Both the position numbers and the translations under genes were made by a program. A stretch of DNA of 60,451 bases, filler included, from Jimgerdemannia flammicorona (lineage: Eukaryota): NCBI GenBank assembly GCA_003990765.1. It is 3 parts of 3 records of this genome, joined end to end, with 100 filler letters (N's around TTAATTAATTAA, not from the genome) between each part and the next. Parts side by side here need not be neighbours in the genome. Positions count along the whole stretch, not along the records: positions 1 to 20,086 come from RBNJ01001765.1; 2 more parts are not named here. The stretch is one strand, 5' to 3'. Under the pieces are notes generated by a model that was given only the letters and a program-made list of their open reading frames with translations, ran no database searches and was not told the DNA's origin. This document shows positions 1-59,303 of this stretch, piece after piece. Within the stretch, counting starts at the first letter, position 1. Each line of letters opens with the position of its first letter.

Positions 1-467
1 GAAGCTCCTGTCCTGGTGTGACCAGACTTTACAAACCATTCATCCTGGCAACTGATGCCTCAGCCTTAGGACTTGGATCAATTCTGTCTCAGCAAGATGA
101 CCAGAAGAGGGAGCATGTTATCGAATATGCTAGCAAGGCCACAAATGAAACACAAGTGAACTATGGAGCCACTAAGTTGGAATACCTAGCAGTAGTTTGG
201 GCTGTGGACCACTTCTGACACTATCTCTTGGGAAAGAGATTTGCTCTCATCACTGACCATCAAGCTCTACAATGGTTGTTCAACAAGCCGGAGCTCTCAG
301 AAATCTTCACTAGATGGATCATGTCTCTGCAAGAATATCAGTTCACTATTGTCTACAAGAAAGGTACTAAGAATTCCAATATTGATACCCTGTCAAGAAT
401 CCCGTGAAACCAACAAGAAGGGAAGGAGTCCCCACAAGAGAAGGCTGCTTCCCACTCACCCAAATGA
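1..467 (+). pseudogene. RNase H end of the RT-RNaseH ORF of Gypsy family A
   Basis: One frame from ORF 18..218 through NIDTLSRIP. TGA at 216 and 405 are probably CGA decay; final TGA at 465-467. Confidence 0.85.
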
Positions 468-1947
468 ACCAAGAATTGCACCTCGCCCTTACCTGGAGTC
501 TGCACTATAGAAGCTTCAAGAAAGGAATCCAACCAGCTCACAAGTTGTTTATCCAAAGGAATTTCAAGAAATTCCAAGAAGGCAATGGCGAACTTTGGAG
601 AGTAGAAGGAGAGCAGTATACCCAAGTTCCAAGAGAGGAAGAAATATTGAAGATCCTGACAATAAATTATGACCAAAATGCATACCAAGGAATTGGCGCT
701 ACAATCGCAAGAATCAAGAAGCAATACTGGTGGCCCAAGATGAGAAAACAAATTTCAACATATATTCAACAATGTGATACCTGTCAAAGATACTGACAAA
801 AGCCTACTGACAGAGCACCATTAATACTGATCGCAGCACAGCTGGAGCCTTTCAAAGACTGGAAATAGACATTATTGGACCCCTACCAGTAACCAGCCAA
901 GGAAGACACTACATCCTCACTATCGAAGACCACCTGACAAAATGGCCTGAAGCCTTTGCCATTGAGACTGCCGATGCCCAGACAATTATTGAGATCCTGT
1001 ATGATGAAATTTTCAGCCACCATAGTGTGCCCAAGGAAATCATTATGGACCAAGGCTGAGAATTCGTCAACCAAGCCATGAAGACCTTTGCAAGCAACTT
1101 CAAGATCAAGCTACAACCAACAACAGCCTACTACCCACAGGTAAATAGACTCACTGAACAAATGAACCAGACCATCAAGTGAGGTCTCAGTAGAACCAGA
1201 GATCAACTAAACTGGGATATCTATTTACCAGCAATTCTGTTCAGCATCTGTACCTCTAAGGCAACCACTACCCAATAGACCCCCTTCTATTTGGTGTATG
1301 GCTGAGAAGCACAAGATCCTACTGAACCAGTCCAGCTAGATCTGTCAAAATGAGTCACAGAAGAGATCATCTGGTTATACGACATATGCCAGCAAGCACA
1401 AGGATTTATCGCCAAGGCACAAGAACGACAAAAGAGGTACTATGACCGCAAAGCTGACCTCGAACCCCTGCTCATTGGACAAAAGGTTCTGGTGTATCAT
1501 ACCATCATAGAAGGAAATTGGAGTACCAAGTTTGAACCAAAATGGGAAGGCCCCTATCTCATATACCAAGTATTCTCGAACCACACTTATTAACTCAAGA
1601 CCTTGGATGGAGTTATACTCAAGACCAAGATACACTGCAACCACATAAGACTCTACTACTCAAGAGAAGCAAAACGCATTTGAACAATCCTGTTCACTCT
1701 ATCTGTGTCATCTCCGCCGGAGATACAATGGACGTTTCACTCAGAACTCAAGAAAGCCAATAACATTGGAACCAGACTCAAGCCCATCTACGTGATAGAC
1801 ATTGTTACTAAGAAATTGCCTTGGATTACAAGAAATACTATTTCCGATAGGTTCAAACCCCCAGCCATGACTATAGGAGCCCTCGCCTTAGCCAAGGATG
1901 GCCAGTCCTCACAAATGCACCGACATTCTGCTCATCCCTGGAGTTAA
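464..1947 (+). pseudogene. Separate integrase ORF (MNQEL start) with ~90-aa C-terminal extension
   Basis: ATG 464 is in a different frame from RNase H. A 1-nt deletion near 865 and several nonsense codons; after that shift the integrase frame runs on into ORF 1705..1947. Confidence 0.8.
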
Positions 1948-2214
1948 GACCACCCTACTCTGTGTAACCCTCACTGCTGAGGATGGCTCTAATTTTGCAA
2001 GGGGCAGATGTGACGTATACAATTAACAATGGAGTATCGGTGACTGCTAAGATCAGACAACATAATGGCATAACAATTGAATAGACAGCCTGACCCATTA
2101 GGTGATCACCCCAAAAGGAGCAATGATAATCTGAGCTAAAAGGAAGACTATGTTATTTAAAGAACCATACTCCGCCTCAGGAATCAGTACCAAAGAACAA
2201 ATACCCACCATACA

Positions 2215-3027
2215 ATGCCTCCTATCCACCGCCCCAACCAGACCTCCTGCCGCTCTTCCCCCTTGCCTGGCCCAAAGACTCTAATCCTTGAAGCTATCAA
2301 GAAGGCTATTTAGTGCCCAGACACTTCTGAATATCTGAACTTTTATACTGAGGATCTTAAACACTTCATCAATTACCAGTACATAATGACCCAATAGCTC
2401 AAAGATACCACTGAATGAATGACCCTCTGGTATGATTACGAAATTGGATACCACCTTCATAATGAAACCCAAGAAGGTGACCAGGAAGACCTCATTGCCG
2501 AAATGTTAACCACCAGCCAGCTAATCAAGAGAGCCCTCCGTGTCCACCAAATCTTCCACCATATTCCCTGGGCTATAGCACACTTACAAGGAGTGACTGC
2601 TGGAAGTCTTGCCCGTCTCTCAACTGAAGATGCAGACTGGATAGAATCAGAAGTAGCTGACTCTATTGGTAGTAACTGGGTCACTGTAGGAAGCCAACAA
2701 ACTGAGCCCACTCAACCAGGCTTTCACACCACTCTACTCCGAGACAACTATCAAGATCACCTAATGAGTCTCATGGAAATCTTTGAAGGACCACCCATTA
2801 CCATTACAACATCTGTTGGAGCAACCCCAACTACTCACTACCCTGTCAGCTACAATTTACATCTCATCATTTGGGAACTAAATCAAGAAGTCCCAGAAGT
2901 CTCTACCAATACAGAAACTGAAGGATCTGAGGAAGAAGAAGAGGAGGAACAAAGAATCTACCAATCCTCTATCCACCTTCAAGCAGTCCAAGGGTTGGAA
3001 AATGTCATCGAAGATGATTGGCCATAA
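2215..3027 (+). pseudogene. LTR-encoded accessory ORF (~270 aa, acidic C-terminus), unknown function
   Basis: ATG 2215 is in frame with ORF 2419..3027. Its three internal stops are sense codons (W, Q, R) in the second copy at ~58230-59097. Confidence 0.75.
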
Positions 3028-3196
3028 TTCTACCCCCTCACCTCCTGGCCGGCACTCCCACCCTTTGAAGAATGGGATGAAGAAGTCACAACCCAGCAAG
3101 ATGATTGGATCACTGACGAAGGGTACTTTACCATTCAGTGATCCCATATCCATTTCCTCAGTCCGGTCAGCCAACATTTGTCAGCAAGTCAGCAAT

Positions 3197-3480
3197 ACCC
3201 GTTTTTAGCAATACTACCCACAACATCCATATCCAGCACTAGCACTCATCTTATCCCAATTCGGTGCAAACAATTATCACACCCATTTTCAGCGATACCA
3301 CCCACAACATCCATATCTAGCACTAGCACTCATCTTATCCCAATTCGGCGCAAATAATTGTCACACCCGTTTTCAGTAATACCACCCACAACATTCATAT
3401 TCAGCACTAGCACTCATCTTATCTCAATTTGGTGCAAACAATTGTCGCACCCATATTCAGCAATTGAACCACCACAACAT
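3197..3480 (+). repeat. 84-bp tandem repeat, three units plus a partial, in LTR U3
   Basis: Unit starts at 3197, 3281, 3365 and 3449. Confidence 0.92.
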
Positions 3481-4399
3481 AGTATACCTTAGCCCCCCCC
3501 CCCATAGCTAGCAAATTTGTATAAATAACCCTATATCTTAGAGTGAATAAACCTCAGTCAGTTTGTATTTAAAAGTAAAAAGGATTACAGAGAAACCTCA
3601 CTGCCTCTAAGAGACCGGATAAATTCTGAGAACAAGATAACTAGAGTAACAATTGCTTGAGGTTTGAGTTAAAGAATTTTCTCTTACCATGGAAAATGTT
3701 CAAGATTCGCCACTAAGGAAAGCCACACGAAAAGCTGTTCAGTTCAGTTTAAAGACCCGCTGCTAAAGGAAAGCTGCACAAAAAACTGCCAACTGCCACT
3801 GAGATCCCACCAGCCCAACCATCATACATTTGACCCAACCATCATGCATTCGATCCAACTGCTGTGCATTCAGAACTAACTGCCATTCGAGGTTCAAGAC
3901 CACACATTTGAGATCTACCATTTAAATATTAAGACCCCAGCCAAGGAACCCAAGGATACTTAGCTTAGGAAAGCCAGCACCGTCGTCATTCACCTAACAA
4001 GTCAGATGGACAAGTTCCCCTTTTACCTGCTGCGCCACAAACCGTATACATTCAAGAAGTAATTCGCTACTAGGAAAATTCATCAACCACTAAACAACCG
4101 AGCCTCCACTGTACGAATCGGATGAACCAATCACATGACCATTGACCCACAACCGTCGCAAACGCACTCAGTCATATATCATACGCTCTACCAAGTGGCA
4201 CATTGAGCCATGCTTGAAGCAACTAGGGATACAAACCACACACCACAATATATATAAAAGAAAGAGTAATTATAGTAGATAAATAGAGTATCAGACTAGT
4301 GATTCAGTAGGATCTTCTAATTGATGCAGAGCAGTTAAGTGATAGGTATTACTTTTAGCAACTCTCTTTTTTTTTTTTAATTTTTTTTTTTATTTTTAT

Positions 4400-4980
4400 C
4401 TCTCAGCAGCTCTCAGTAATATATGAGGTTAGACTTTAGTTATTGGGATTATTGAGAGGTCTGAGACTACTCAAATCAGATATCTTTACTATACTTAATT
4501 GGAATAGAGAGCTAATAGAGCAATGTGATCAAGGTCTATAGACTTGAGTAGTAAAATATTAGGGGTCTTCTCTCACTTTATATATAAGTTCTCTACTTAT
4601 CTTATTGAGAAGAATCAGATCCTACTCACTATTCTATTTTTTTTTGAAAGATTTTTCTTTATTTATTATTCTATTTGGAGTGATAGGAGCTTTGTAAATC
4701 AGCTCAAGCATGGCCTTATATATATATTGGGGTTTTGAGCATATGTCTTTAGTTGTGGACATATAGTTACTTTCCCTCTAGTAATAGGAAGAGTATGATA
4801 TATAAAATAAAATATAGACTAATATAAGCCCTACTATACCTAGTATAGTTGAGCTACTAGACAATAGCTAGTTAAAGTTTATGGAGGGGTAGTGCTCAGA
4901 GTGAAGGTAGGGGAGGATTTTCACTATATAGTTTAGATTCTCTTCTAATAAAAATCTACAGAACTTGAGTCTATTAAATA
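4400..4980 (+). mobile_element. Degenerate, 5'-truncated copy of the poly(A) retroelement at 36586-37799
   Basis: AGCCCTACTATACCTAGTATAGTTGAGCTACTAGACAATAGCTAG aligns with AGCCCTACTGTGCCTGGCATGGTCGAGCTACTGGACAATAGCTAG near 37607; same AATAAAAAT end. Left boundary approximate. Confidence 0.75.
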
Positions 4981-5059
4981 TATATATAGTTATACTAAGT
5001 CATGCTAGATAGCTTCTGAATAAAAATACATATCACAGTGGTTAAGTAATGCTGGTTAA

Positions 5060-5215
5060 GTAATAGTTTACTGTGATCTGCATGCTGTGGCTCAATGTTC
5101 AGAGAGTTTGGTATGTTGTTTTCTGCACTTTGCTCATCTCGCTCGTATGTCATCAATCATTTATATCACTCATTCATGACGTTATCACTGTAGTGATGTG
5201 ATCACCGTTCGCGCC
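5060..5215. repeat. Degenerate fragment related to the putative LTR at 39046-39610
   Basis: Colinear shared blocks TGTTCAG..GTTTTCTGCA, CACTC(A/G)TTC(A/G)TGAC and GTGATCACC with 39270-39385. Confidence 0.5.
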
Positions 5216-6244
5216 TCATGTCATTCCTTGAAGTTCGTGAATTCCTTGAAGTTTGTGAAAATCGTTCATTCTATATATAATTCTATTACATCAATATTTT
5301 GATCTACCAATTCTTTAACTATCTTCTTAATAACCAAAAGACATCAAGTTACTCAGCTCTATAGCCACATTAAGCAGCTATCTCATTAGAAAATACTACT
5401 CTAACTGATTTCAGACTGAGTCTAATGCGAAATTGTCGTTGTGATCCATCTGGATATTTGTATATTTGGAGACTAAAGTTAAATTGCATAGCAATCAGAC
5501 CCCCCCTTTCAATGGGTCATAGCCACAACAATGAGCTTATTATTATTATTATTTATACCACCTTTTGCCCTGAAAAAATGGTGAGCGCGCTATAAAAGAA
5601 TGTTACTGTATGGTTTTTAAGGCATTAGCGAGGGCGTAAGGATGCTGGCTTGGTGACGTATGGTTGGTGCCAGAAATTGAAATTGGATGTGGCGTGATTT
5701 TTGGTTTGTTTGTTTTGTTTTTGAACAAATGGGACACTATTTTTCAAAAAGGTACTAATCCTGATAGGCCATTTGAAAAATTGCGCCCCAAATAGGCTGG
5801 AATGAAAAATTCGCCTTATCGGTTGTTTTGACAAGCCTGTGACGAAACTCTCGAGTCGGCCTGTCGGGTTGCCCATTCAATTTTGAACTGGATATTATGA
5901 GAGGCAATATGCAAACAACCCTTCTGCGCTCCTCACGAGCTTTGCCATGCACCAACAATCGTTGCGGCGACCCCTGATTTATGTACCAACGGTGGTATCA
6001 GGAAGATCATTCTCAAGAACAGTCTGGAGTAAATGCAGGCGCCGATAACCAATTAGACGTAAAGCCATAAAAAAATCTGGTGATGTACCTAAAAGGCGAG
6101 ACATGGATAAATTCGGTCTTTGTCACGTTGGCAATCTTTTACTCGCATCATTCGACCTCGAAAGACAGTTATAAAAAGGCTAAACAACACCTAAAGCTCC
6201 TCATGTCTCTCAATTAAAAGAAAAAAAAAAAAAACACTCAAATA

Positions 6245-6955
6245 ATGAACGACAAACCCATCGTTGAAAGTTCCTCCACGCTCAATAACCTCGCCGCCAT
6301 CGAAATGAAGGGCAGCTGCTATAGCTCGCAACCCGTACTCCCGAATCAGTATGCTGTCCGCGCAGGCAACCCTGGCCCGCTGGGCCTCTTCTCCTTCGCC
6401 CTTGTGACGTTTGTCCTCTCGGTCTTCAACGTCGTTTGGCCTGACGCCCCCAACAACGCCCTCATCGTTGGCGGCATCTTCTACGGTGGTATCACCCAAT
6501 TCATCGCCGGCCTCCTTGACTTCCAGCACGGCAACACCTTCTCCGCCACCACCTTCTGCTCCTTCGGCGCCTTCTGGACGGGCCAGGGCTTCCTCATGCT
6601 TCCCATCAACTTCAATGCTGCCTATGCCGGCGACACAGAGATGTGGGCACAGGGTCTTGCCGTCTACCACTTGGGCTGGGTCCTTTTCACCTACATGATG
6701 TTCGGTGCGAGCCTCAAGCTCAAGAAGGGGTCCGTCCTCCTCAGCATCCTGCTATTCCTTGTGGGCACCACCATGCTCATGCTCGCCGTGAACATCTGGA
6801 CAGGCAACACCATCCCCAAGAGAATCGCCGGTGTTACGGGTCTTTTGGCCGCTTTCGGTGCATGGTATGCTGGTCTTGCCGAAATCGTGGTCGAGGATGG
6901 CATGACCTTTCCCGTGGGTGCACATAACACCGTCGTTGTTCATGAGCGCGTGTAA
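6245..6955 (+). CDS. GPR1/FUN34/YaaH (SatP/Ady2) family acetate transporter, single exon, 236 aa
   Basis: GNPGPLGLFSFA signature, YGGITQFIAG, GNTFSATTFCSFGAFW; about six hydrophobic helices. Confidence 0.93.
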   Translation: MNDKPIVESSSTLNNLAAIEMKGSCYSSQPVLPNQYAVRAGNPGPLGLFSFALVTFVLSVFNVVWPDAPNNALIVGGIFYGGITQFIAGLLDFQHGNTFSATTFCSFGAFWTGQGFLMLPINFNAAYAGDTEMWAQGLAVYHLGWVLFTYMMFGASLKLKKGSVLLSILLFLVGTTMLMLAVNIWTGNTIPKRIAGVTGLLAAFGAWYAGLAEIVVEDGMTFPVGAHNTVVVHERV

Positions 6956-16373: not shown

Positions 16374-17544
16374 TCAGTCACTCTTGACCACCACACAAAA
16401 ATTATTCCTTCCGCCGCCTTCCCTCCCCTCCAGCACCTTCTTTCTCCACTCAATTCCCCTCCCACTACCCGCCGCCCCGGACCACTCGAACAGATAGTAT
16501 GCCAGTTTGGTCGAGTGGTGGTGTCGGATGCACCGCACGTAGCCGAGTGATCGCATCATCGCCAAAAGATGCTCATGCGACATGTAGCGCGAGTTGGTGA
16601 CGCAGGGGAGAGGAAGGACTAAATAAAGGAGGCGGGGGGATGGTCGTGGGGTAATCACGGTAGAGGGATGGAGAAAGGAGCGGGGGTGGCGGAGCATTTC
16701 ACCTGCCGTGGGGGTTAGATGGGAAGAGGACGGGATGTCAGTTGAAGACAAATATGTTGTACGGGCATGCGATGATGAGATAAGAATGATATATATATAT
16801 AAGAAACAACAAAGAGAAGTCAATAAAAATGATTCCATACCTCTATCCACCGGATCACCCACAAAATTCACCACCAAACTCAGGCACACGACATCAAATC
16901 TTTCTCCGTCGCCCGCCGGCGGCGCCATCTTGAGGAAATCCTGCTTGCGGATCTCGGGATGCTGCGGGTTGAGGTCAATGGGTGTAGCGCGGATCCACGA
17001 CGAGTATGCAGCGTAGTTTGTAGGCAAGAGGGCGCCGACGTCGAGGAGACGGAATGGGAGAATGTCCTGGTGCCGCGAAAGCGGGATTTCGGTAAGCGAT
17101 GGGTCTGAAATATAATAGAAATCCACGCATAAAGAAGACATTCTAGTGTACCTTATACTTCTCCTTGATCTTCTTCTCCTCCAGCACCCCCACCAACCAC
17201 TTGCTAGAGTCCCCGCCGCGCTGTTTACTCTGCCCAAGCGTGCTGGCCTTCTGGTACCAATCCAGCCCTCCCATCTCTTGCATCTCTGCGCAAATATCGA
17301 TCTCCCTCGCGGTGTCGCCCGCGGCTCGACATTTTGCGAGCTCTTTGTTGAGGACGTGGAAGCGGCGAATCAGACGGGCGGTCTCCTGCGACGATTTCTT
17401 GAAGCGCGCGGGGATGGGGACCGTGGATGTTGCGGAGGCGGCAGCCTTCTTGCGCGTTGCCTGGGTGGTGACGGGGATGAGCTTCCGGCGGTGGCGGTGG
17501 TGCGAGGGTTTGGTGGATTTCCGTTTGGTTGGTATGGTGGTCAT
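16374..17544 (-). CDS. BMT2: 25S rRNA (adenine-N1)-methyltransferase Bmt2, three exons
   Basis: LIRRFHVLNK, GGLDWYQKAS..GQ...RGGDSSKWL, LLDVGAL, IDLNPQ, SLVVNFV, LPLPCVTNSRY, NNFCVV. Confidence 0.9.

Positions 17545-20295: not shown

Positions 20296-20338
<43 letters not shown>
20187..20338 (+). mobile_element. 3' end of a poly(A) non-LTR retroelement inserted in the 5' LTR of Gypsy B copy 1
   Basis: G-rich tract, AATAAA and a ~40-nt A tail, followed directly by LTR U5 sequence matching 26586-26642. Confidence 0.7.
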
Positions 20339-20341
<3 letters not shown>

Positions 20342-22559
20342 TTCAAGATACAGAAATCCGACATACTTTCAAGAGTAAGCATCTGCTACATTACAACTTG
20401 GTGCCCATTGGCTGGTAATTTAAGATGAATCCCTCACTTTCAAGCTGAACAACAAAAAACCATTACTACCCAAGCAACTACACAAAGTGAGCCACAATAT
20501 CCAGACAAAATGGATATGAGACCACCAGTATTCCATGAGTATACCTCAGATGAATCAATCATTACCTTCATTGATGATTTCGAGCAGTATGCCACTGTAA
20601 GGACCCTGACAGCAGTACAGCAAGTAGCCCTCATGCCCTTCAGCCTACAAGGTCCTGCCAGAGCAGCATTCACAGCTACAACCTATATAGGAAATGATGC
20701 TAATGCTATACTGATAGTACAGAAGACCTGGCTTTGAAATATATATTATATAGATGAGATCAAGCAAGCTCTGAAGAATCAGCTCAATACAACATGCCAA
20801 GGAATGAGTGAGGATTCAAACACATTCTATACCAGAATTCGATATCAGATAATCTATATGGATTATGCTGCTGCTATTTGAGATCAAGTAGCTGAAGCAA
20901 CCTTCATAAAAGGAGTTCACCCAGAGATAGCCATGGCCATCCATTCATCACTAGTAGTCTTGGATCTGCTATAGAAGATCACCTATGCTCAGTGATATTG
21001 GACAGCCAGACACCCACAAGACCATACAATAGAAAGAGTCACAGGAGTCAGAATCAAAACACCCAAGGCAACTAGTGTGATCCCTACTATAATGATCAAT
21101 TGAAACACATCTCAGCCAAAAACTACAGAGTAGCAAAAGAACAGTGACCCTATGGAGGAACTTGCCAAGAGGTTCACTGAAATGACTGCTCACCTGAGAG
21201 ATGTGATAAAAGAAATCCAAGGAAGAAACCGCCACCCAGTTCAGAAGTTTGTTGCCATCTCAGATAAGAAGAAAGGTACCTACTATACCTGCAGAGAAGA
21301 AGGCCACTACTCCTATGAATGTATGAGCGAAACCAAGCATAAGGCTCAACCAAGTAATGCTACACAAAACAGAGAGCAGGCCAATACAATTACCTTCGAG
21401 GAAATTGGAGATTCTGATGAAGAAGAATGGGAGGCCTATCTTGCTCAGACTACCAAGAAGGATGTTCACAAGGAACCCTACAAGAGACCACCAGGAAGAC
21501 CCAAGAAGAACCCAGTAGAAAAGCAGATAGAAATGGTTACTGAAAGCCAAGCCAAAGAGATGGACCAAGATATGGAGCTGGAGCAAGCAGTTCAAGATAT
21601 TATCCAAGGAACTACCCTAGCCAGCAAAGGAGAAAAAGAAAAGAAACTTCATAAGACCAAGACTTTCAAGTATGATATCTTCAAGGACCTTAGCCAACAA
21701 AAGGTCAATGCAACCTTTGGTCAGCTCGTAGAAATCCCAACATTTAGACAACAAATGAGGTTTGGACTTGCCAAAACAACCAAGGAGCAAGGATAGAAGA
21801 TAACCAAGACCAATAATATTCAAGAGGACTCAGGAGAAGAAAGTGAAGACAATTGCAAAACCTCTGTCTATGCAATATGCCAAATCAAAGATAGAGTCTT
21901 TGAAGCCATCATTGATACTGGAGTAGGAGGATGTCTTCTCAGCAAGAAAGCAGCAGACTGCCTAGGCTGGGAAGTTGAAGAAGCAACCAAGTTGGTTTTT
22001 ATCACAGCAGATAGTACAAGAGCCACCCATCTGGGAAAGATCTGAGAAGTCTCCATCAAGATTGGAGAAGCAACCATCTCAGTAGATATAATCATAATCA
22101 ATGCCACCAACTATGACATCCTCATCAGCAATCAATAGCTTCACAAAGCCAGGGCAGTAATCAATCTCAATATCCAGAAGATACAAATCACCTACCAGGG
22201 ACAGAAGATACAAATTCCCATCAATGTCAACAAAGGAGTCTTGCCTAACATGGAGGAAGAAGAGAGCGAGCAAGAGGAAGCTTATATAGTGACTACTCTG
22301 AAGAAGAAAGTTGGACAGATGAGTGAAGAAGAATGGTATAAGAAGATCGTAAAAGGCTATATACCACAAGGAGTCTGTTCTCATGGAATCAAGATGTACT
22401 GTATGGAGCATGTCAATGATTGCTACCAGTGCACCATCAGAATCAAGAAAATCCATCAGGAAAGAAGACAGAAAGCTCTTGAAAAACAGGTCAGAGAAGA
22501 GAAGGAGGAGGAAGATGATGAACCACCAGTCCTCCTGGAGAATAGTGATGATGAAGAAG

Positions 22560-22980
22560 AAATTAAGGTCAAGATCTGAAGGACCCACCCTGATGCAGTC
22601 TTGCCAGAATACAAGTCAGAAAATGCAGCTAGAATGGACATCGCCACAGTAGAAGAAGCTGTACTAGAACTCCAAACAACCACCCTACTCACAACTGGAC
22701 TGGAGATAACTATCCCAAAGAATCATGTCAGGATCCTCAAGACAAGAAGCAGCCTGACCAGAAGCGAAATTATGATTGAAGGAGGAGTCATTGATTCTGA
22801 CTATACTAGAGAAATTCTGCTCATTGCTAGGAATCACAATCCTACAATCCCATTCCCGGTCAAGAAGAAGGACCAATTGGCACAGATGTTGATCTTTCCA
22901 ATCCTACAACCAAGGATCATAGAAGTCAAGAATTTGGAGGAAATGAAAAGAGGAAAGAAAAGACTTGGATCCACAGGAAG
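22560..22980 (+). pseudogene. dUTPase domain between protease and RT
   Basis: All five trimeric dUTPase motifs: AARMDI, TRSSL, GGVIDSDYTREI, DQLAQML, RGKKRLGSTG. Confidence 0.92.
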
Positions 22981-24491
22981 AAGAGCATTTACCAGTATCA
23001 AGATCACTGAACTGGAGCATAAGAAGGAGGAAATCACAAACAAGTACAGTTACATCATTGGAAATGAATTCCCACTTAAGGAGGAACTCAAGAAAATACT
23101 CCACGAATTCGAGGATGTCCTCACTATGGATTTCAAGGATATCAAGGGAAAGACCCCACACTACTATCATGAGGTAGATACCAGAGACACCAAACCAATT
23201 TACCAGAAGGCACGACCTGTCCCACCAGCCTACCAAGAATAGCTCAGAGAAGAAATCAAGCAGATGGAAGAAGCTGGTAATATCAAAGAAGCCAGCAGTC
23301 CCTGGTCTTCACCAGTTGTACTAGCTCTGAAAAAAGGAAGCAACCCTGGAGAATTCACCCCAAGACTCTGTGTTGACTACAGAAAGCTCAATGCAGTTAC
23401 CAAGAAGGATTGCCAACCACTGCCCCTCATCAGTGACATCCTTATAACACTGGGAGACAAAGCACAGTACTACAGCACCTTGGACTTATACTCAGGATTC
23501 CACCAAATCGGACTCACAGAGATGGCAAATGAAAAGTCAGCCTTCATCACCCCAGACAGAACCTACATCTACCTACAAATGCTGTTCAAGATGTGCAATA
23601 TACCAGCAAGCTTTTAGCAAATGATGAACAAAATCTTCTGCTATAACATAGGAAGATGGATGATGGTCTATATCAATGACATAATCATCTACAGCAAGAC
23701 ACCTGAGGAATACCTACAGTATATATGGCAGATAATGGAAAGACTGAGAAAGCATGGCCTGTATATCAAGCCCAAGAAATACAAATTTGCAGAAATCAAG
23801 ATCTCTTACCTTGGCCATGTTATCAATTAAGAGAAAACACACATGGACCCTCTCAAGATATAAGTAGTAACAGCATACCCAAGGCCCACTACTGTTACAG
23901 AAGCCCAAGCCTTCATGGAACTTGCCTCTTACTATTGTAGATTTATCAGAGGATTCTTCAATATTGCAGGTCCAATCTATGAACTCAACAAGAAGGACAC
24001 TAAATTCAACTGGACTGCCAGACAACAAAAAGCATTTGATGAACTCAAGGTCAGACTGACCCAGGCACCCATCCTCAGATGACCCAATTGGACCCAAGAG
24101 TTTATCCTTCAGACAGACACAAGTGTACAAGGACTAGGAGTAGTTCTAGCTCAAAAGAAAGACAAAAAAGAGTATATTATTACATACCTAAGCCAAGAAA
24201 CCCAAGGAGCTGAAAAAGAATACAAATCCTACAAGTTAGAATGCCTTGCAGTCATCTGGGCTATAGAAAAGTTCCACTACTATCTGGCTGGAAGACACTT
24301 CACCATTCAGATAGACCACTCAGCTCTCACCTAACTACTGACAACTAGACAACCCAAAGGAATCTATGTCAGATGGATAATGAAGTTACAAGTCTATGAT
24401 GTAACCATTGTATACTACCCTGGAAGAACAAATTCCAATGCAGATGCTCTCTCACGGACACCTTGAAACATCTCCAACCAACAAATCAATT

Positions 24492-25693
24492 ATGAATAAG
24501 GAGCTCTACTACAGAATCATCACATATCTGAGACAGCAAAAGATGCCCCAAAATCTGGAAGAATGGAAACAAATAATTATCAATAGAACATGGAAACAAT
24601 TTGAAACTGATAGACAAACACTAAAGAAAAGAAAACTACTAGTCATACCAGAATATAAGAAGGAGCAAGCAATGAAATCAGTATATAAACTTGGCCATCT
24701 AGGAGGAATGAATATATATGACAAGGCAAGAAGAATGATATGGTGGCCAGGAATGGAGAAAGATATCAGACAATTTGTCAAAACCTGCAACAAATGCCAG
24801 AAACAGAAATAAGACCAATAAAACCAAGCCCCAGGATCAGCACATATAGAACTAGTACTATTTGCCCACATAGCAATGGATGTAATTGGCCCTCTACCCT
24901 TGACCCTGACTGGTAACTGATATATCATTGTCATTGTAGACCTTTTTATGAAGTGGATAGAAGCAGGACCCCTCAAGGAAGCCAATGCACAGTTAATCAC
25001 CAATTTCTTCTACAAAGAAATCATCTGCCAGTTCAAGACTCTAATGCAAGTAACTATAGATAGAGGAACAGAATTTGTAAACCAGTTCTTTGAGGTTCTC
25101 TACAAGAAGTACAAGATCTAGCACATTCAGACTACAGCCTATCACCCTCAAGGAAATGGACAAGCAGAAAGGACCAACAAGACCCTCAAGAATGTTATTG
25201 CCAAGATCTGTAATAACTATGAAAACTGAGATCACTATCTGCCAATAGCATTATCTGCTCTCCAAGATATCAGATCACAAAGTACCCACTTTACCCCTTA
25301 AGAAATGCTGTTCAGAGAAGAAAGTTCTCAAGAAACCCTATCATCCAATGGGGATGCTGTATGGAAACATGTAGATGGAGAAATACAGAGACTACACCAA
25401 ATTAGGAAGAAGGCTGAGGATTACATAACAAAGGCACAGGCACTATAACAGAAGAATGCAGAAAAAACCCACAAACCCCTGGAGATTATCAAGATAGGAG
25501 ACAAAGTCCTGGTGTATCGAAACATAGTAGAAGCCTCATGGTCACAAAAACTGGAGCCCAAGTGGGAAGGATCTTACCTTGTGCAAGATATAAAAGGAAT
25601 CACCTTTTGGCTATGAAAACTCTCAGGCACAATCATCTCCACTACCATCTACCAAAACTGACTCAAGAAGTATCATGACCAGTCAACAAAGTA
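24492..25693 (+). pseudogene. Separate integrase ORF (MNKEL start), family B copy 1
   Basis: LGHLGG...CNKCQK, MDVIGPLP, TAYHPQGNGQAER, PKWEG; +1 frame relative to gag-pol. Confidence 0.85.
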
Positions 25694-26134
25694 ATACTAC
25701 TGCCCTCAGAATTACTAGCACAGCCCAGTGAGCCATTGAAAGACAGTGGTGTTCCACTGAGCCACCAACAATGGAAGAATCCTTTGACAGTATCCAGAGT
25801 ATAGTGCAAACACTTGTCACGAATCTCACATTTCAAGGTCTACCAGAACTGAACTGAGTTCTAGGAATACTTCAAGTTGGGACAGCTACTGAATTCAAGA
25901 CCAAAGATGGGAAAAGACGACTGGATCAGAGAATGTCAGCTCTCCTACACTCAGATCATAATTGCAAAAAGAGTATACAAGTTATTTAAAGATGACAAGT
26001 CAGCCTTAGCCCATTTCTGAGGAGTAACCCCAGGAGACTTTGGATATATCAAGAGACAATATTGGAAGGACATAATGATACAAATCACATAGTATAAGGA
26101 AATACAAATTGTAGAAGCCTGGGAATTTGAGTGA
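25675..26134 (+). pseudogene. Accessory ORF3 of family B (2-nt deletion relative to copy 2)
   Basis: Conserved with 53603-54064; motif AKRVYKLF...ALAHF.GVTPG. Confidence 0.7.
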
Positions 26135-26649
26135 ATAGGATGCTCCTGAGATGAATCACTTATTCAGGAGGAAGATATGATGGCTGATCTGAATTAGTAA
26201 TATGAAACAGAGGAATTAGACATTTGATCATGGTACCTGAATCTGATTTTCAATATAGCTTAGCCTCATAAATAGCAGCCATATTCTACAAAGTGCAGAA
26301 ACTTTAATGTTTATAAAGATTTAGGAGATGTTAGAATCTTCGCAATCAGTAAAATCTTAGCAGATATTAAAAGATTCAATATTTGCAAAATGAGCCATTA
26401 CTTAGCTACCTTATAGTTAGTAAAACTTATATAAATAACCCAGTATCTTAGAGTGAATAAAACCTCAGATCGAAATAGTTCAAAAGCAAAGAGATAGCAA
26501 AGAAACTAGTAAGCCCACAGGCAGATACACTTCGAACTTATCCACCCCTGTATCCCAAGGACTCCGAGGAGTCAGAGAAGATCAAGTATTCAAGATATAG
26601 AAATCCAACATACTTTCAAGAGTAAGTGTCTGCTATGTTACAATATATA

Positions 26650-47909: not shown

Positions 47910-50900
47910 TGTGATGGTCAATCTGAATTAGTAACATGAATCAGGAGAATTAGACATTTGATTGTAGTACCTGAATTTGATTCCCAAATATAGCTTAGCC
48001 TTACCAATAGTAGTCATATTTCGCCAAGAGCAGAAACTTTAACATTGGCAAAGTTTTGGGAGATGGCAAAATCTTTACAGATGTTAAAAGATTTAATACT
48101 GGTCATACTTAGCTACTTTATAGCTAGTAATCTTATATAAATAACCCAGTATCTTAGAGTGAATTAACCTCAGATCAAAATAGTTTAAAGCAAAGAGAAA
48201 GCAAAGGAACTAGTAAGCCTGTGGGCAGATATACTTTGAACTTACCTATCCCTGCATTCCAAGGACTCTGCAGAGTCAAAGAAGATCAAGTTTTCAAGAT
48301 ACAGAAATCCAATATACTTCCAAGATTAAGTGTCTACTATGTTACAACTTGGTGTCCATTGACTGGTGATTCAAGATGAATCCCTCACTTTCAAGGAGAA
48401 TAACAAATAACTGCCACCACTCAAACAACCATACAAACTGAGTTAAGATATCTAGACAAGATAGATATGAGACCACCAGTATTCTATGAATATATCTCAG
48501 ATAAATCAATCATTACCTTCATTGATGATTTTGAGCAGTATGCCACTGTAAGGACCCTGACAGCAGTACAGCAAGTAGCCCTCATTTTCTTCAGCCTATG
48601 AGGTCTTACCAGAGCAGCATTCACAGCCACAACTTATACAGAAAATGATGCTGATGTCATACTGATAGCACAGAAGACCTGGCTCCAAAACACCTATTAT
48701 ACAGATAAGATCAAGCAAGCTCTGAAGGACCAGCTCAATACAATATACCAAGGAATGAGTAAGGACTCAAATACATTCTATACCAGAATACAATATCAGA
48801 TAATTCTTGCAGATTATGCTAATGCTATCTAAGATTAAGTAGCTGAAGCAACCTTCATAAAAGGAGTCCACCCAGAGATAGCTATGGTCATTTACATATT
48901 ACCAGTAGTTCTGGATCTACCACAAAAGGTCACCTATGCTCAGCAATATTGGATAGCCAGACACTCACAAGACCACACAATGGAAAGAGTCACTAGAGTT
49001 AGAATTGAAGTACCCAAGGCAACTAGTATGACCCCAACCACAATGATCAATTGAAACACACCTCAGCCAAGAGCTACAGAGCAGCAGAGAAACAGCAACC
49101 CTATGGAGGAGCTTGCCAAACAGTTCACTGAAATGACTGCCCACCTAGGAGATATAGTAAAGATAATCAGAAGAAGAGACTGCTGTCTAGTTCAGAAGTT
49201 TGCTGCCACTACAGACAAGAAGAAAGGTATCTGCTACAGCTGCAGAGAGGAAGGCCACTACTCTTATGAATATATGAGTGAAACCAAGTGCAAGGCCCAG
49301 CCAAGCAATACTACTAGAAATAAAGAATAGGCCAACATCATCATATTCGAGGAAATTAGAAAATCAGATGAAGAATGGGAGACCTATCCTACACAGACTA
49401 CCAAAAAGAATATTCATAAGGAATCTTACAAGAGGCCACCAGGAAGACCTAAGAAGAATCTGGTAGAAAAACAAATAGAGACAGCCACAGAATGCCAAGC
49501 TGAAGAAATAGATCTAGATATGGAGCTTGAGTAGGCAGTTCAGGACATCATTCAAGGAACCACTCCAGCCAGTGAAGGAGAAAAGGAGAAGAAGCTCTGC
49601 AAGATCAAGACCTTTAAGTATGATATCTTTAAAGACCTCAGCCAACAAAAGGTCAATGCAACCTTTGGTCAGCTCACAGAAATTTCCACCTTCAGACAGC
49701 AAATGAGATTTGGACTAGTAGAAATAACCAAGGAGCAAGGTTGGAAGATAACTGAGGCCAACAATGTTCAAGAAGACTCTGGAGAAGAAAGTGAAGACAA
49801 CCACAAGACTTCTGCCTATGCAACCTGCCAAATCAAAGACAGAATCTTTGAGGCCATCATTGATACTAGAGCAGGAGGATGTCTCCTTAGCAAAAAAGCA
49901 GCAGACTGTCTAGGTTGGGAAGTTGAAGAAGCAACCAAGTTGGTGTTTGTCACAGCTAATGGTACAAGAGCCACACCTCTGGGAAAAATTTGAGATATTC
50001 CCATTAAGTTGGGAGGAGCAACCATCCCAGTAGATATAATTGTAACCAATATAACCAACTATGAGATCCTCATCAGAAATCAATGGCTTCACAAAGCCAG
50101 AGCAATAATCGACCTCAATACACAAAAGATGCAGATCATCTACTGAGGACAGAAGATATAAATTCCCATTAATGTCAATAAAGAAGTCCTGCCCAATATG
50201 GAGGAAGAAGAGAGTGAACAAGAGGAAGCTTATATGGTAACTACTCAGAAAAAGAAGGTTGGATGGATGAGTGAAGAAGAATGGTACAAGAAGATCATAG
50301 AAGAATATGCACCACAAGGAGTCAGCTCCCATGGGATCAAGATGTACTATATGGAGCATGTCAATGATTGCTACCAGTGTACTAGCAGAATCAGGAATAT
50401 CTACCATAACCATGAAAGAAGACAGAAGGCTCTTGAGGAACAGGCCAAAGAAGAGGAGAAAGAAGATGATGAACCACCAGCCCTCCTGGAGAACAGTGAT
50501 GATGAAGAAGAAATCAAGATCAAGATCCAGAAGATTCACCCCAATGCAGTTCTACCAGAATACAAGTCAGAAAATACAGCTGGAATAGACATTGCCACTA
50601 TAGAAGAAACTGTACTGGAGCCCTAGACAACTACTCTACTTACAACTGGTCTAGAGATAACCATACCAAAGAACTATGTCAGAATCCTCAAGACAAGAAG
50701 CAGTCTGGCTAAAAGTGAAATTACCATTGAAGGAGGAGTCATCAACTTAAACTATACTAGAGAAATACTACTTATTGCTAGGAATCACAACTCTACTATT
50801 CCATTCCCAATTAAGAAGAAGGACCAACTGGCACAAATGTTAATCTTCCCAGTCCTACAACCAAAGATCATAGAGGTCAAGAAGTTGGAGGAAACAGAAA

Positions 50901-53900
50901 GAGGAAGGAAAGGATTTAGATCTACTGGAAGAGGAGTATTTACCAGTACCAAGATCACCAAACTGGACCACAAGAAGGAGGAAACTATAAACAAGCATAG
51001 CTATACTATTGGAAATGAGTTTTCACTCAAAAAGGAACTCAAGAAGATACTCTATAAATTTGAGGATGTCTTTGCCACAGACTTCAAGGATATCAGAAGA
51101 AAGACTCTACACTACTACCATGATATAGACACAGGAGACACCAAACCAATTTATCAGAAGGCAAGACTCATTCTGCCAGCCTACCATGAATGGCTTAGGG
51201 AAGAAATCAAGCAGATAGAAGAAGCTAGTATTATCAAAGAGGCCAGCAGTTCTTGGGCTTCACTAGTTATACTAATCCTGAAGAAAGGAAGCAAGTCAGG
51301 AGAATTTGCCCCAAGACTCTGCACCAATTATAGGAAACTCAACCTAGTCACTAAAAAAGATTACCAACCACTGCCCCTTATCAGTGATATCCTTGTAACC
51401 CTAGGAGATAAAGCACAGTATTACAGCACCTTGGACTTATACTCAGGATTTTATCAAATCAGTCTCACAGAAGCAGCAAGTGAAAAGTCAGCCTTCATCA
51501 CCCCAGATGGAACCTATGTCTATCTGTGAATGCTATTCGGAATGTGTAATACACCAGTAAGCTTCTAGTGAATGATGAACAAAATCTTCTGCTATGATAT
51601 GGGAAGATGGATAATGGTTTATGTAGATGATATAATTATCTACAGCAAGACAGCCAAAGAACATCTGTGACACATCCAGCAGATAATAGAGAAGTTGAGG
51701 AAGCATGGTCTTTACATCAAGCCCAAGAAATACAAGTTCACAGAAATTGAGATCTCCTACCTTAGTCATATCATCAACCAAAATAGAACATATATAGATG
51801 CTCTTAAGATATAAGCAGTAGCAGTATATCCAAGACCCACTATTGTTACTGAAGCCCAAGTCTTCATGGGACTCACCTCCTACTACTGAAGATTTATTAG
51901 AGGATTCTCTAATATTGCAGGTCCAATCTATGAACTCAACAAGAAAGATACTAAGTTTCAATAGACTGGCAGACAGCAACAAGCATTTGACAAGCTCAAG
52001 GTCAGACTGACCCAAGCACCCATCCTTAGAAGACCTGATTGGACTCAAGAATTCATTCTGCAGATAGATGCAAGTACATGAGGACTAGGAGCCATCCTGG
52101 TCTAAAAGAAAGACAAAGTAGAGTATGTCATCACATACCTAAGTCAAGGAATCCAAGGAGCTGAAAAAGAATATAAATCATACAAGTTGGAGTGCCTTGC
52201 AGTCATCTGGGCTGTAGAAAAGTTCCACTACTATCTGGCTGGAAGGCACTTCACTATTCAGATAGACCACTCAGGCCTCATCTGGCTACTGACCACTAGA
52301 CAACCCAAAGGAATCTATGTCAGATAGATCATAAAGTTGCAAGCCTATGACATAACTATTGTGTACTGCCCAGGAAGAACCATTGCCAATGCAGATGTCC
52401 TCTCATAAATACTCCAAAGGACTCTCAACCAATAAACCAATAATAAATAAGAAGTTCTACTACAGAATCATCACATACCTGGGACAGTGAAAGATGCCCC
52501 AACATCTGGAAGAATAGACACAAACAATTATCAATAGAACATAGAAACAATTCGAAATCAATAGAGAAACACTGAAGAAAGGAAAACTACTAGTCATATC
52601 AGAATACAAGAAGAAGCAAGCAATGAAATCAGTACATGAACTCAGCCATCTAGGAGGAACCAACATATATGATAAAGCAAGAAGAACAATATAGTAGTCA
52701 GTAATAGAGGAGGATATCAGACAATTTGTCAGGACCTACAATAAATACCAGAAATAGAAACAAGATCAATATAATCAGACCCCAGGATCAGTACACATAG
52801 AACCAGTACCCTTCACCCACATAGTAATAGATATAATTGGCCCACTACCTCTGACCTTGACCAGCAACTGATATATCATTGTCATTGTAGACCTTTTTAT
52901 GAAATAGATAGAGGCAGGACCCCTCAAAAAAGCCAATGCACAGTCAATTGCTGATTTCTTCCACAAAGAAATCATCTGCCAATTCAAGACTTCAACACAA
53001 GTGACCACAGATAGAGGAACAGAATTTGTGAACCAGTTCCTTAAGATTCTCTACAAAAAGTATAAGATCCAGTATATTTGGACCATAGCATATCATCTCT
53101 AAGAAAATGGACAAGCAGAAAGGACAAACAAGACCCTTAAAAATGTTATTGTCAAAATCTGTAATAACTACAAAAATTGTAATCACTATCTGTCAATAGT
53201 ATTATTGGCTCTCCAGGATATCTGACTAAGAAATGCTGTTCAGAGAAGAAAGTTCTCAAGAAATCCTATTGTCTAATAGAGATGTTATATGGAAATGAGT
53301 GAACACAGAGATATGGAAACTATACTAAATCAGGAAGAAGGCTGAAGATTACATAAATGAGGTGCAGACACTACAGTAGAATAATGTAGAAAAGATTCAC
53401 AAGCCCCTGGAGATTATCAAGATAGGAGACAAAGTCCTGGTGTATTGGAATATAGTAGAAGCTTTATGGTCACAAAAACTAAAGCCTAAGTGGGAAGGAC
53501 CTTACCTTGTACAAGATATAAAAGAGACCACCTTTTGGCTACAAAAACTCTCAGATACAATCATTCCCACTACCATCTACTGAAACTAACTCAAGAAGTA
53601 CCATGAACAGTAAACAAAGTAATGTAGCTGCTCTCAGGATCACAAGTGCTGCCCAATGAGCCATAGAAAGACAATAGTGTTCTACTGAGCCACCCACAAT
53701 AGAGAAATCCTTTGACAGCATCCAGAGTATAGTCCAGACCCACTTGTTATGAATTTCACATTTCAAGACATACCAGAACTGAACTGAGTTTCCGGAATAC
53801 TTCAGGCTAGGACAGCTACTGAATTCAAAGCCAAAGATGGGAAAAGAAGACTGGATTAAGAAATGTCAACTCTCCTATACTCAGATTACAATCACTAAGA

Positions 53901-54506
53901 GAGTGCACAAGTTATTCAAAGATGATGAGCCAGCTCTAGTGCATTTTCAAGAAGTAACCCCAACTGACTTTAGATATATCAAGAGACAACATTGGAAGAA
54001 TATCATGGCACAAATCGTACAGTACAAGGAGATACAAATCATGGAAGCCTGGAAGTTTGAGTGAATAGGATACTTTAGAGATAAATCACCTATTCAGAAG
54101 GAAGTTGTAATGGTTAATCTGAATTAGTAACATGAATCAGAGGAATTAGACATTTGATCACAGTACCTAAATCCAATTTCCAAATATAGCTTAGCCTTAC
54201 CAATAGCAGTCATATTTCACCAAGGGCAGAAACTTTAACATTGGCAAAGTTTTGGGAGATGGTGAAATCTTCACAGATGTTAAAAGATTCAACACTGGCA
54301 GAAAATGACTCATTACTTAGCCACTTTATAGTTAGTAAACTTGTATAAATAACCCAGTATCTTAGAGTAAATAAATCTCAGATTGAAATAGTTCAAAGTA
54401 AAGAAAAAGCAAAGAAACTAGTAAGCCTGTGGGCAGATACACTTTGAACTCACTCAAGATACAGAAATCCAATGTACTTCCAAGGTTAAGCATCTGCTAC
54501 ATTATA
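47910..54506 (+). mobile_element. Ty3/Gypsy family B copy 2, complete with both LTRs and 4-bp TSD
   Basis: LTRs 47910-48346 and 54106-54506; TSD ATAG at 47906-09 and 54507-10; PBS-like TGGTGTCCATTG at 48350; dUTPase ~50512-50930; RT YVDD near 51620; colinear with copy 1. Confidence 0.96.
53603..54064 (+). pseudogene. Accessory ORF3 of family B (154 codons, frame intact, internal stops)
   Basis: ATG 53603 overlaps the integrase end and is in frame with ORF 53837..54064; internal stops are TGA/TAG of the CGA/TGG-decay type. Confidence 0.75.
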
Positions 54507-57102: not shown

Positions 57103-59303
57103 TGTTGCGTTAGTTATGTATAATGAACTTTGACTACACAGCTCAATGTGCCACTTGGTGAAGTGTGCAATGTATAACTAAAGGCATTTGGTGATGTTCG
57201 CGGGTTGATGGTCATGTGATAGGTCGTTTGATTCATGCGATAATAGCGGGAAAACAGAGGTTGATGGCTCACTCATCTGTCTTGACTTGTTAGGTTGAAA
57301 GGTTCCTGGCAGTGCTGGCTTTCCTAAGCTAAGTATTCTTGGGTTCCTTGGTTTTCCGGGTCTTGAATCTCGAATGCATGGTCCGAATGGCAGTCCGAAT
57401 GGCGGTCTGGTCTTGAATCCTTGGCTGGGTCTTGGGTCTCGAATGGCAGTCTGAATGGCAGTCCAAATGGTGGTCTGGTCTTGAATCCTTGGCTGGGTCT
57501 CGGGTCTCGAATGGCGGTGGTTGGGTAATGTTCTCTTTCCATGGCAAGAGAAAATTCTTTAACTCAAACTTCCGAGCGATCCATTGCTCTAGGTTGTTAT
57601 CTTGTTCTCAGAATTTATCCGGTCTCTTGGAGGCAGTGAGGTTTCTTGGTAATCCTTTTTACTTTTAAACACAAACTGGCTGAGATTTATTCACTCTAAG
57701 AATATGGGTTATTTATACAAGTTTGCTAGCTATGGGAGAGGGGGCACGACTAAGGCTAAGGTATACTACATTGTGGCGAACTTATGCTATTGGTTTGCAT
57801 GATGTGAGGTGTAGGCTATTGTTTACTATGGATTGGGTTGTAGGGGATAGCAATGCTAGATTCGGACTTGCTGACAAAACGCTGAAAATGGCGGCACTGG
57901 ATAGCAATGCTGAAAACGGTTGTGCTGGGTAGCAACGCTGAATTCGGATGAGCTGACATGATACAATGATTGTTGCCAGAAACAGTTGTGGAGGGTGGCA
58001 ACGCTGAATTCGGATCTGCTGACAAAATGCTGAAAATAGTGGTACTGGGTAGCAACACTGGAAACGGACTTGTTGACAAAAGCTGGGTTCTCATGGCTGA
58101 TGGGCGGTACTCTAGAGAAAATAGTACCCTTCGTCCGTGGCAGGCAAATCTTGCTGGGTTGTGATTTCTTCTTCATCATATCTCTCCTCAAAGAGGGGAA
58201 GCGCCGGCCAAGAGATGAGAGGGTAGAAAGTGGCCAGTCATCTTCAACAACATTCTCCAACCCTTGAACAGCTTGAATGCGGACAGAGGACTGGTAGACT
58301 CTCTGTTGCTCCTCTTCTTCTTCTAAAGGCTCGTCAGTTTCAGTGTCAGAGGGGGTTTCTTCAGGGGCAGGATCTTGAAGTTCTTGGGCCTCCTCTTCAA
58401 AGACAGGAACTTCTTGGGCTTCTTCTTGATTCAGTTCCCAAATGATGAGGTGTGAATTGTGGCTGACAGGGTGGTGGGTGGTTGGGGTAGCTCCAACAGA
58501 TATCTCTATAGTAATGGGCAGTCCTTCAAATATCTCCATAAGACTCATTAGGTGACCTTGATGGTTGTCTCGGAGTGGGGTGGTGTGGAAACCTGGCTGA
58601 GTAGGTTCAGTTTGTTGGCTTCCTATGGTGATGCAGTTGCTGCCAATAGCGTTGACCACTTCAGATTCTATTCAGTCAGCATCTTCAGTTGAAAGGCAGG
58701 AGAGGCTGCCAGCTGTTACTCCTTGCAAGTATGCTATAGTCTAGGGAATATGGTGGAAGATTTGATAGATACGGAGGGCTCTCTTGATTAGCCAGCTGGT
58801 GGTTAACATTTTGGCAATGAGGTCTTCCTGGTCACCTTCTTGAGTCTCATTGCGAAGGCAGTGTCCGATTTCATAGTCATGCCAGAGGGTCATTCGTTCG
58901 GTAGTGTCTTTGAGCTGTTGGGTCATTATATACCGGTAGTTGATGAAGTGTCCAAGGTCCTCAGTGTAGAAGTTCAAGTGTTCGGAAGTATCTGGGCGCC
59001 AGATGGCCTTCTTGATAGCTTCAAAGATCAGGGTCTTTGGGCCAGGCAAAGGGGTAGAGCGGCGGGAGGTCTGGTTGGATCAGCAAATGAGAGGCATTGT
59101 GTGGTAGGTCTTGGTTCTTTGGTGCCGATCCCTGAGGTGGAGTATGGTTTCTTAAATAACGTGGTCTTCATTTTGGCTCGGATTATCTTGCCTTCTTTTG
59201 GGATGGTCACCTAATAGGTCAGGCTGTCTATTTGATTGTCATGCCATTATATCATCTGATCTTAGCAGTCACCAGTACTCTGTTTTCAATTGCGTACGTC
59301 ATA
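57103..59303 (-). mobile_element. Solo LTR of Gypsy family A (2201 bp) carrying the accessory ORF
   Basis: End-to-end homology with 2009-4247; ATAT on both flanks (57099-57102, 59304-59307); no pol sequence recognisable adjacent. Confidence 0.87.
57856..59097 (-). pseudogene. LTR-encoded accessory ORF, copy 2
   Basis: ORFs 58741..59049 and 57856..58659 are in one frame and closely match 2215-3027 up to DDWP; this copy reads on into the U3 repeats. Confidence 0.75.

Follow-up and report, generated by a model that had tools for sequence, protein, structure and literature searches.

The 60,451-nucleotide (nt) stretch of Jimgerdemannia flammicorona DNA analyzed here, called the window throughout, consists of parts of three records of assembly GCA_003990765.1 joined end to end with filler letters between them; positions 1 to 20,086 come from RBNJ01001765.1. 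It opens inside the pol gene of a Ty3/gypsy retroelement (family 1), whose pol tail is followed by a polypurine tract and a 2.2-kb long terminal repeat (LTR) in which a reading frame for an accessory protein is embedded. An earlier note on this DNA had placed a protein gene of about 270 codons within the U3 (unique 3′) part of this LTR. The analysis points to a similar arrangement: the repeat is likely a bona fide LTR from a Ty3/gypsy element that is now dead, and its U3 would hold a genuine accessory gene for a protein of approximately 310–325 amino acids (aa), with an origin of the "ORF3" type (ORF, open reading frame) and a role as a trans-acting regulator. The features are collected in Table 1.

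The long terminal repeat and the gene within it

Pfam searches of the pol stretch identified RT_RNaseH (E 1e-34), Integrase_H2C2 (3e-15) and rve (7.9e-12) in this order from 5′ to 3′. The integrase follows RNase H, the order by which Ty3/gypsy elements are recognized, and the reverse transcriptase (RT) itself lies outside the window. This pol is disrupted by stops and frameshifts, as seen in a three-frame reading. The polypurine tract AAGGGGCAGA is presumed to be the plus-strand primer site. Copy 1 of the LTR opens with TGTGACG at 2009 directly after the tract and closes with CCACA at 4247 (CACA at 4244–4247), and thus has the TG...CA ends and the preceding polypurine tract of an LTR. Self-comparison of the window revealed exactly one further copy of the 2.2-kb repeat, on the minus strand from 59303 to 57103, with identical ends. 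Similarity between the two copies begins at 2009–2011 and stops at 4247; the start of copy 2 is no more than 2 nt from the polypurine–TG junction of copy 1, and the two share the terminal CA, in agreement with the borders that had been proposed for the LTR. The GC content drops from 0.48 to 0.29 at the end of copy 1 (4247), and it changes from 0.40 to 0.24 at the start of copy 2 (59303) and from 0.45 to 0.28 near its end (57103–57141). The flanks of copy 2 are unrelated on both sides to those of copy 1, have a GC content of 24–25%, and at E <= 0.01 gave no tblastx match to the internal sequence of either of the two retroelement families in the window. In an empty-site test with these flanks, only low-complexity runs and one unrelated repeat were matched. 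Because copy 2 combines the same ends with unrelated AT-rich flanks and has no coding remnants alongside, it was read as a probable solo LTR, and copy 1 as a probable 3′ LTR. Taken together, these borders support the location of the gene inside the LTR.

The start of the accessory ORF at 2215 stands as first described, whereas its proposed end at 3027 does not. In the intact homologue P0002, and in copy 2 after frame correction, the reading frame continues beyond the TAA at 3025–3027 via FYPL.SWPALP, which makes this TAA secondary and extends the gene of copy 1 to 3141. The internal stops are found at codons 33 (TAG), 61 (TAG), 68 (TGA) and 271 (TAA) in copy 1 and at codons 6, 119 and 142 in copy 2, in which the 1-nt deletion is located after the DDWP motif. 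All of them are of the transition type, and the alignments bear out that, wherever one copy has a stop, the other has a sense codon. The copies differ in length by 57 nt, or 19 codons, through the sole indel between 2215 and 3024. The frame is kept, as had been noted, but the supposed insertion in copy 2 is a deletion in copy 1, since the intact homologues P0002 and P0004 have the long form. A hidden Markov model (HMM) of the protein family scores 426 bits on the gene of copy 1 and 464 bits on that of copy 2. A read-through fusion with pol was also considered and rejected: the ORF shares the frame of pol in the window, but 1948–2214 contains six stops in copy 1. Four of the six recur at identical positions in copy 2, so that the gene cannot be an extension of pol reached by read-through. 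In the related metagenome contig L001, described below, the pol tail and the accessory ORF lie in different frames.

The pattern of substitution supports a real gene that was once under purifying selection. Differences between the two ORF copies fall at codon positions 1, 2 and 3 in the proportion 43/22/77. By the Nei–Gojobori (NG86) method, the ratio of nonsynonymous to synonymous divergence (dN/dS) in the ORF frame is 0.166 (dN 0.106, from 61 differences over 619.5 nonsynonymous sites; dS 0.636, from 74 over 172.5 synonymous sites), with a codon bootstrap range of 0.108–0.250. Read in its two other frames, which served as controls, the same sequence gives 0.69 and 1.20. Among the 119 transitions, 53 are of the CpA-to-TpA type, which fits decay resembling repeat-induced point mutation (RIP). 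The check with such sites masked, as the earlier note had proposed, leaves the ratio far from 1: with 67 RIP-like transitions removed it is 0.158 (0.088–0.252). That the gene is real, as the earlier note held, is thus supported by purifying selection and by intact homologues. The copies diverged under this selection when the gene already had its present place in the repeat, which shows that the arrangement was stable and that the protein mattered to the element. The arrangement is also old, because the copies differ by a dS of 0.64, yet the gene stays at the same distance of 200 nt from the LTR start. Outside the gene, the LTR copies are separated by many indels with lengths that are not multiples of three.

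The gene lies wholly inside the LTR and upstream of its presumed promoter, as is the case for the sag gene of mouse mammary tumor virus (MMTV); the TATA box TATAAATA at 3520 is 379 nt beyond the gene end. The position between the polypurine–TG junction and a TATA core, which the earlier note had reported, was found again, with U3 assigned from motifs. The core at 3504–3557, presumed to be the border between U3 and R (repeat), matches the family-2 LTRs of the window at 48120–48173 and 54328–54381 (54 nt, 87%, E 1.6e-12), and also family-2 LTR stretches at 26413–26468 (56 nt, 86%) and 54770–54822 (54 nt, 81%). Since it is common to the family-2 LTRs, its role as promoter and U3/R border gains support, and with it the placement of the gene in U3. 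A second TATA-like motif, TATTTAAAG, precedes the gene and may be the promoter of the LTR-borne gene; copy 2 has TATTTAAG at the same place (59158), and L001 has TATAAAAG 80 nt upstream of its ATG. The 84-nt tandem array downstream of the gene may act as an enhancer. An Rfam search over 1–6000 gave no match.

Table 1. Positions and characteristics of the family-1 LTR copies, the accessory genes and the associated retroelement features in the window (identities are between LTR copies 1 and 2)
Feature	Position	Strand	Characteristics
Family-1 LTR, copy 1 (probable 3′ LTR)	2009..4247	+	2239 nt, TGTG...CACA
Family-1 LTR, copy 2 (probable solo LTR)	57103..59303	-	ATATAT on either side
Accessory protein pseudogene, copy 1	2215..3141	+	309 codons, 4 internal stops, 57-nt in-frame deletion
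Accessory protein pseudogene, copy 2	58112..59097	-	3 internal stops, 1-nt deletion near 58226
LTR before the gene	2011-2214		82% identity, no indels
Gene up to DDWP	2215-3024		82.5% identity, one indel of 57 nt
Tandem-repeat region	3142-3470		51% identity, 39 gap columns
Promoter core region (putative)	3471-3700		87% identity, 17 gap columns
Remainder of the LTR	3701-4247		59% identity, many gaps; conserved blocks return near the 3′ end
TATA-like TATTTAAAG	2154..2162	+	61 nt upstream of ATG
Tandem array	3197..3464	+	84 nt x 3.2, 88% matches (Tandem Repeats Finder); between gene and promoter core
Conserved promoter core (putative)	3504..3557	+	TATAAATA at 3520, AATAAA at 3546
Family-1 Ty3/gypsy pol, 3′ part	1..1947	+	RNase H, integrase zinc finger, integrase core, C-terminal tail
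Polypurine tract AAGGGGCAGA	1999..2008	+	Abuts LTR; single occurrence in the window
Family-2 element B, full-length	47910..54506	+	LTRs 47910-48346 and 54106-54506; ATAG on both sides
Short accessory ORF, element B	53603..54064	+	~153 codons, 4 stops; overlaps pol end, upstream of polypurine tract
Short accessory ORF, element A	25853..26131	+	In-frame part

The protein family and its relatives

The accessory protein belongs to a small orphan family that is tied to fungal retroelements and was not annotated before. Three matches were obtained among 5.8 billion clustered proteins, including the intact 325-aa protein P0002, with 67% identity across 96% of the query. When 1.84 billion representatives were searched with a profile, eight matches were obtained at E <= 0.001, namely a cluster resembling the window protein, three short fragments, and four divergent members of 149–342 aa with approximately 30% identity; none of the eight is fused to gag or pol or is longer than 342 aa. 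Full-length homologues free of stops are P0002, P0006 (342 aa) and the ORF of L001 (291 aa). A protein database search with P0006 returned only P0006 itself. With P0002 as the query, 586 pattern matches in metagenome contigs and 119 in viral contigs were obtained, none of which was confirmed.

AlphaFold2 modeling coupled with composition analysis predicts two parts: about 150 residues that form a helical domain and, after it, a strongly acidic, aromatic-rich and disordered tail. A first model from five close sequences reached a predicted local distance difference test (pLDDT) score of 35; with 10 sequences, residues ~20–165 are all helical with a pLDDT of 70–95, and residues 219–291 fall below 50. 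The family proteins are acidic (isoelectric point, pI, of 4.6–4.9), and their tails contain 18–31 Asp and Glu residues versus 4–9 Lys and Arg, together with 4–16 aromatic residues. They lack a hydrophobic segment (maximum 19-residue Kyte–Doolittle mean 1.07), and an envelope-like or membrane protein was rejected on this ground. Pfam gave no family match, with a sub-threshold hit to FPN1 (E 0.056) in one of ten members. A sequence profile search of the PDB found nothing at E <= 10, the ESM Atlas search yielded no usable match, and Foldseek found no match at E <= 0.001 in the PDB or BFVD. VIA-align over 48,161 chains reached a top Z of 3.8, with none at 5 or above. Among the 50 VIA-align entries listed, the top rows include ParB/SopB/VirB helix-turn-helix chains (3mkw, 3mky, 3vwb, 1zx4 and 1vz0) at Z 3.0–3.8 over 75–79 residues, values at the noise level for helical models.

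L001, a metagenome contig of 1535 nt that carries the intact 291-aa family member, was the single locus found with P0006. Its upstream stretch matches the family-1 pol tail (27 nt, 85%, E 0.022). This is the best blastn match of L001 in the whole window, and its distance to the ATG corresponds; the DGQ..MH motif of the pol tail is present at both loci. Directly after the stop codon of the accessory ORF, a 12-nt polypurine run is followed by TGTAAT (1250–1268). Comparison of the L001 flanks with the start of either LTR was not significant (z of -0.8 to 1.8; 17 of 300 shuffles reach the best score). The intact ORF is flanked at 170–181 and 1481–1492 by an exact 12-nt direct repeat (TCAGGCGGAACG-like), around which the similarity is looser. 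The polypurine run and the direct repeat may indicate where an LTR begins, or a primer region that was duplicated.

The window also contains two copies of a second Ty3/gypsy family (family 2), element A at 20337–26643 and the full-length element B, the pol of which is 37–46% identical to that of family 1. Both family-2 copies carry a short ORF at the same place, between the pol end and the polypurine tract. In element B this ORF is outside the LTR, ending at 54064 before the LTR starts at 54106. The family-1 HMM matches the short ORFs with independent E-values (i-E) of 0.0014 and 0.17, and hhalign of the family-1 gene against the family-2 ORF gave 79% initially and 85% (E 5.8e-6, 78 columns) when five ENA proteins were added. 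These proteins, P0013–P0017, are stop-free, 98–139 aa long, and 65–71% identical to the short ORF. Between elements A and B, dN/dS of the short ORF is 0.13 (0.05–0.28), versus 0.40 and 0.96 in the control frames. The family-2 short ORF is thus probably, if remotely, homologous to the LTR-borne gene. As the homologue is outside the LTR in family 2 and the gene is inside it in family 1, the position of the accessory gene with respect to the LTR border would differ by lineage.

Element B has LTRs of 437 and 401 nt. Its stretch 50162–51529 contains a Pfam dUTPase domain (E 1.9e-22) just before RT (RVT_1); dUTPase-bearing fungal Metaviridae have been described. The motif TGGTGTCCATTGAC at 48350–48365, 3 nt past the 5′ LTR, looks like the primer-binding site of the element. 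A partial family-2 LTR at 54750–55003, with its own TATA core at 54770–54822, is located approximately 250 nt past the 3′ LTR, and may represent a solo LTR or what is left of a tandem insertion. A third repeat family, AT-rich and about 70% identical among its copies, occurs at 4456–4978, 36715–37792 and 55752–56830; it adjoins both family-1 LTR copies in opposite orientations relative to them and is outside the LTR unit. The GC content of the window alternates between stretches of ~52% and blocks of 26–30%, and the 6 kb at 40001–46000 have a GC content of 52–54% with a strongly negative GC skew (-0.31 to -0.49). The host genes include a GPR1/FUN34/YaaH acetate-transporter-like gene at 6218–6955 on the plus strand (E 2e-43) and the Bmt2 25S rRNA methyltransferase gene at 16374–17369 on the minus strand (E 3e-46); both agree with a fungal origin of the DNA.

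Weighing the explanations

An alternative is that the gene is an ordinary internal ORF3. The true LTR would then be shorter, with its start beyond the gene, and copy 2 would be an element fragment that lost its 5′ part and begins at 2009 by chance. The homologous ORF of family 2 is indeed internal, L001 has its polypurine run and TGTAAT after the stop codon, and the 2.2-kb unit is known from two copies only. However, a chance truncation would have to coincide with the polypurine–TG junction to within 2 nt in a copy that also ends at the CA of copy 1. Neither copy has a purine-rich tract followed by TG in 3141–3520, where such a shorter LTR would begin, and the 200 nt ahead of the ATG match the gene in their degree of conservation and are free of indels. 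The GC step falls exactly at 59303, and no pol remnant is present upstream of copy 2. This alternative is accordingly considered improbable. Somewhat less probable still is a piece of a host gene, transduced and captured by the LTR. Such an origin would agree with the lack of a match to known retroelement domains and with the acidic disordered tails that are common in cellular regulators, but only eight of 1.84 billion representatives match, none of them above 342 aa, and all three loci with visible context (family 1, family 2 and L001) adjoin a Ty3/gypsy pol. The gene also remained under selection during its time in the LTR, and no homologue is found elsewhere in the window. A chance ORF in conserved non-coding LTR sequence deserves almost no credence. 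The stops in both copies, the absence of a known family and the pLDDT of 35 in the first fold would be expected of one, whereas the dN/dS of 0.17 against 0.69 and 1.20, the codon-position counts, the persistence of intact ORFs of 291–342 aa at approximately 30% identity and the confident second model over residues 20–165 would not.

Several observations weigh against a genuine U3 gene in a true LTR. Both gene copies in the window are dead pseudogenes. The LTR assignment depends on a single 3′ LTR plus a second copy presumed to be a solo LTR, in a window that opens inside pol; ATATAT is weak as a target-site duplication because it is of low complexity within AT-rich DNA; and U3, R, U5 (unique 5′) and both promoters are assigned from motifs only. 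The gene of L001 may be internal rather than LTR-borne. Regarding selection, dN/dS from transversions only is 0.35 with a range of 0.13–0.93 on few changes, and NG86 ignores the transition bias (119 transitions versus 23 transversions), which lowers dN/dS somewhat; the control frames have the same bias, so the contrast between frames stands. The link to family 2 is remote, at 13% identity, an hhalign value of 85% and the HMM i-E of 0.0014 and 0.17. The N-terminal domain, with a pI of 5.4–6.8, does not suggest DNA binding. With these points taken into account, a true LTR with a genuine accessory gene in its U3 is still the reading that we regard as likely.

Proposed origin and comparison with known systems

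The accessory gene is proposed to be an element-borne "ORF3" that, in a related lineage, occupies its customary position behind pol and ahead of the polypurine tract. Family 1 has its polypurine tract upstream of the gene, and plus-strand priming from this tract would place the gene in U3; reverse transcription would then copy the gene into both LTRs. The earlier note had the gene move into the LTR, and a related lineage with a probable homologue outside the LTR lends some support to such a move, which may have gone in either direction. Expression might start from a TATA-like promoter within the conserved 200 nt that open the LTR, with the transcript ended by the AATAAA of the LTR, or might use a subgenomic RNA spanning the 3′ end of the element transcript. 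The weakest step of the proposal is function: the protein may be a soluble adaptor or regulator that acts in trans, for example in transcription of the element or against host silencing. The helical domain combined with an acidic aromatic tail suggests such an adaptor or an activator. An action in the element's own transcription is considered doubtful, and greater weight is given to other roles in the interaction with the host. Conceivable, although on the unlikely side, is that the LTR is a self-contained cassette with promoter, accessory gene and its own polyadenylation signal that arose by a shift of the primer site across a pre-existing ORF3. If so, each LTR, solo LTRs included, could keep making a trans-acting factor for the family, and there would be a parallel to the entry of sag and nef into U3, with the "before" (family 2) and "after" (family 1) states in one genome.

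If the gene is indeed LTR-borne, simple retrotransposons also evolve LTR-borne accessory genes, an LTR border can shift across a gene, and solo LTRs may have more than a promoter role. An orphan family with a confidently predicted helical domain and no fold match would be a candidate regulator of element expression or host silencing. For annotation, ORFs within long LTRs should not be dismissed as noise.

LTRs are usually taken as non-coding control regions, and LTR genes as oddities of a few complex retroviruses. The nef gene of human and simian immunodeficiency viruses (HIV/SIV) and bel2/bet of foamy viruses are 3′ accessory genes that extend across the polypurine tract and reach into U3. 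They only overlap U3, in contrast to the family-1 gene, which sits inside the LTR as a whole together with the 200 nt before it. The general library searches gave nothing that resembles nef or bel2/bet, and no dedicated comparison with them was made. A closer parallel in position is MMTV sag, the product of which is reported to be an LTR-encoded type II membrane protein under purifying selection (PMC11998498); each provirus has the gene in its LTRs. The family-1 gene likewise is a protein gene inside a retroelement LTR with evidence of purifying selection, but its product has no hydrophobic segment, and the Pfam, PDB and BFVD searches gave no sequence or fold likeness to Sag, so that the two are analogues by position only. 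MMTV is a vertebrate retrovirus, whereas the window gene belongs to a fungal Ty3/gypsy element, and the expression routes of sag are established, whereas those of the window gene are proposed from sequence motifs.

The fungal ORF brtn is reportedly antisense. The family-1 gene is in sense orientation on the same strand as pol, and is set apart from brtn by this description only. In the literature, brtn is named as the additional ORF of Botrytis BcGypsy1 (10.1101/2021.04.13.439636). Two further fungal candidates were rejected as parallels on the accessible parts of their sources: crapaud of Podospora has gag and pol ORFs only (PMC10787394), and the "LTR ORFs" of Talaromyces are polyprotein ORFs (PMC12037069). 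A word search of a review on additional ORFs (aORFs) of plant retrotransposons found no phrase that would place an ORF in an LTR (PMC7264820), and a literature search that covered few subscription journals brought up no fungal LTR retrotransposon with an ORF inside its LTR. By descent, the family-1 gene is grouped with the aORF/ORF3 class (plant aORFs and brtn of Boty/BcGypsy1) as an orphan, element-borne extra gene 3′ of pol. Members of this class are located past the pol end and ahead of the polypurine tract; the family-2 short ORF has this position, whereas the family-1 gene does not, its ATG at 2215 being beyond the tract at 1999–2008. The nearest relatives of the family-1 gene are the family-2 short ORF and P0013–P0017, which share a likeness in the helical core, a position 3′ of a related pol, and purifying selection. 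The family-2 ORF differs in its length of ~153 codons, in having no acidic tail, and in being located outside the LTR.

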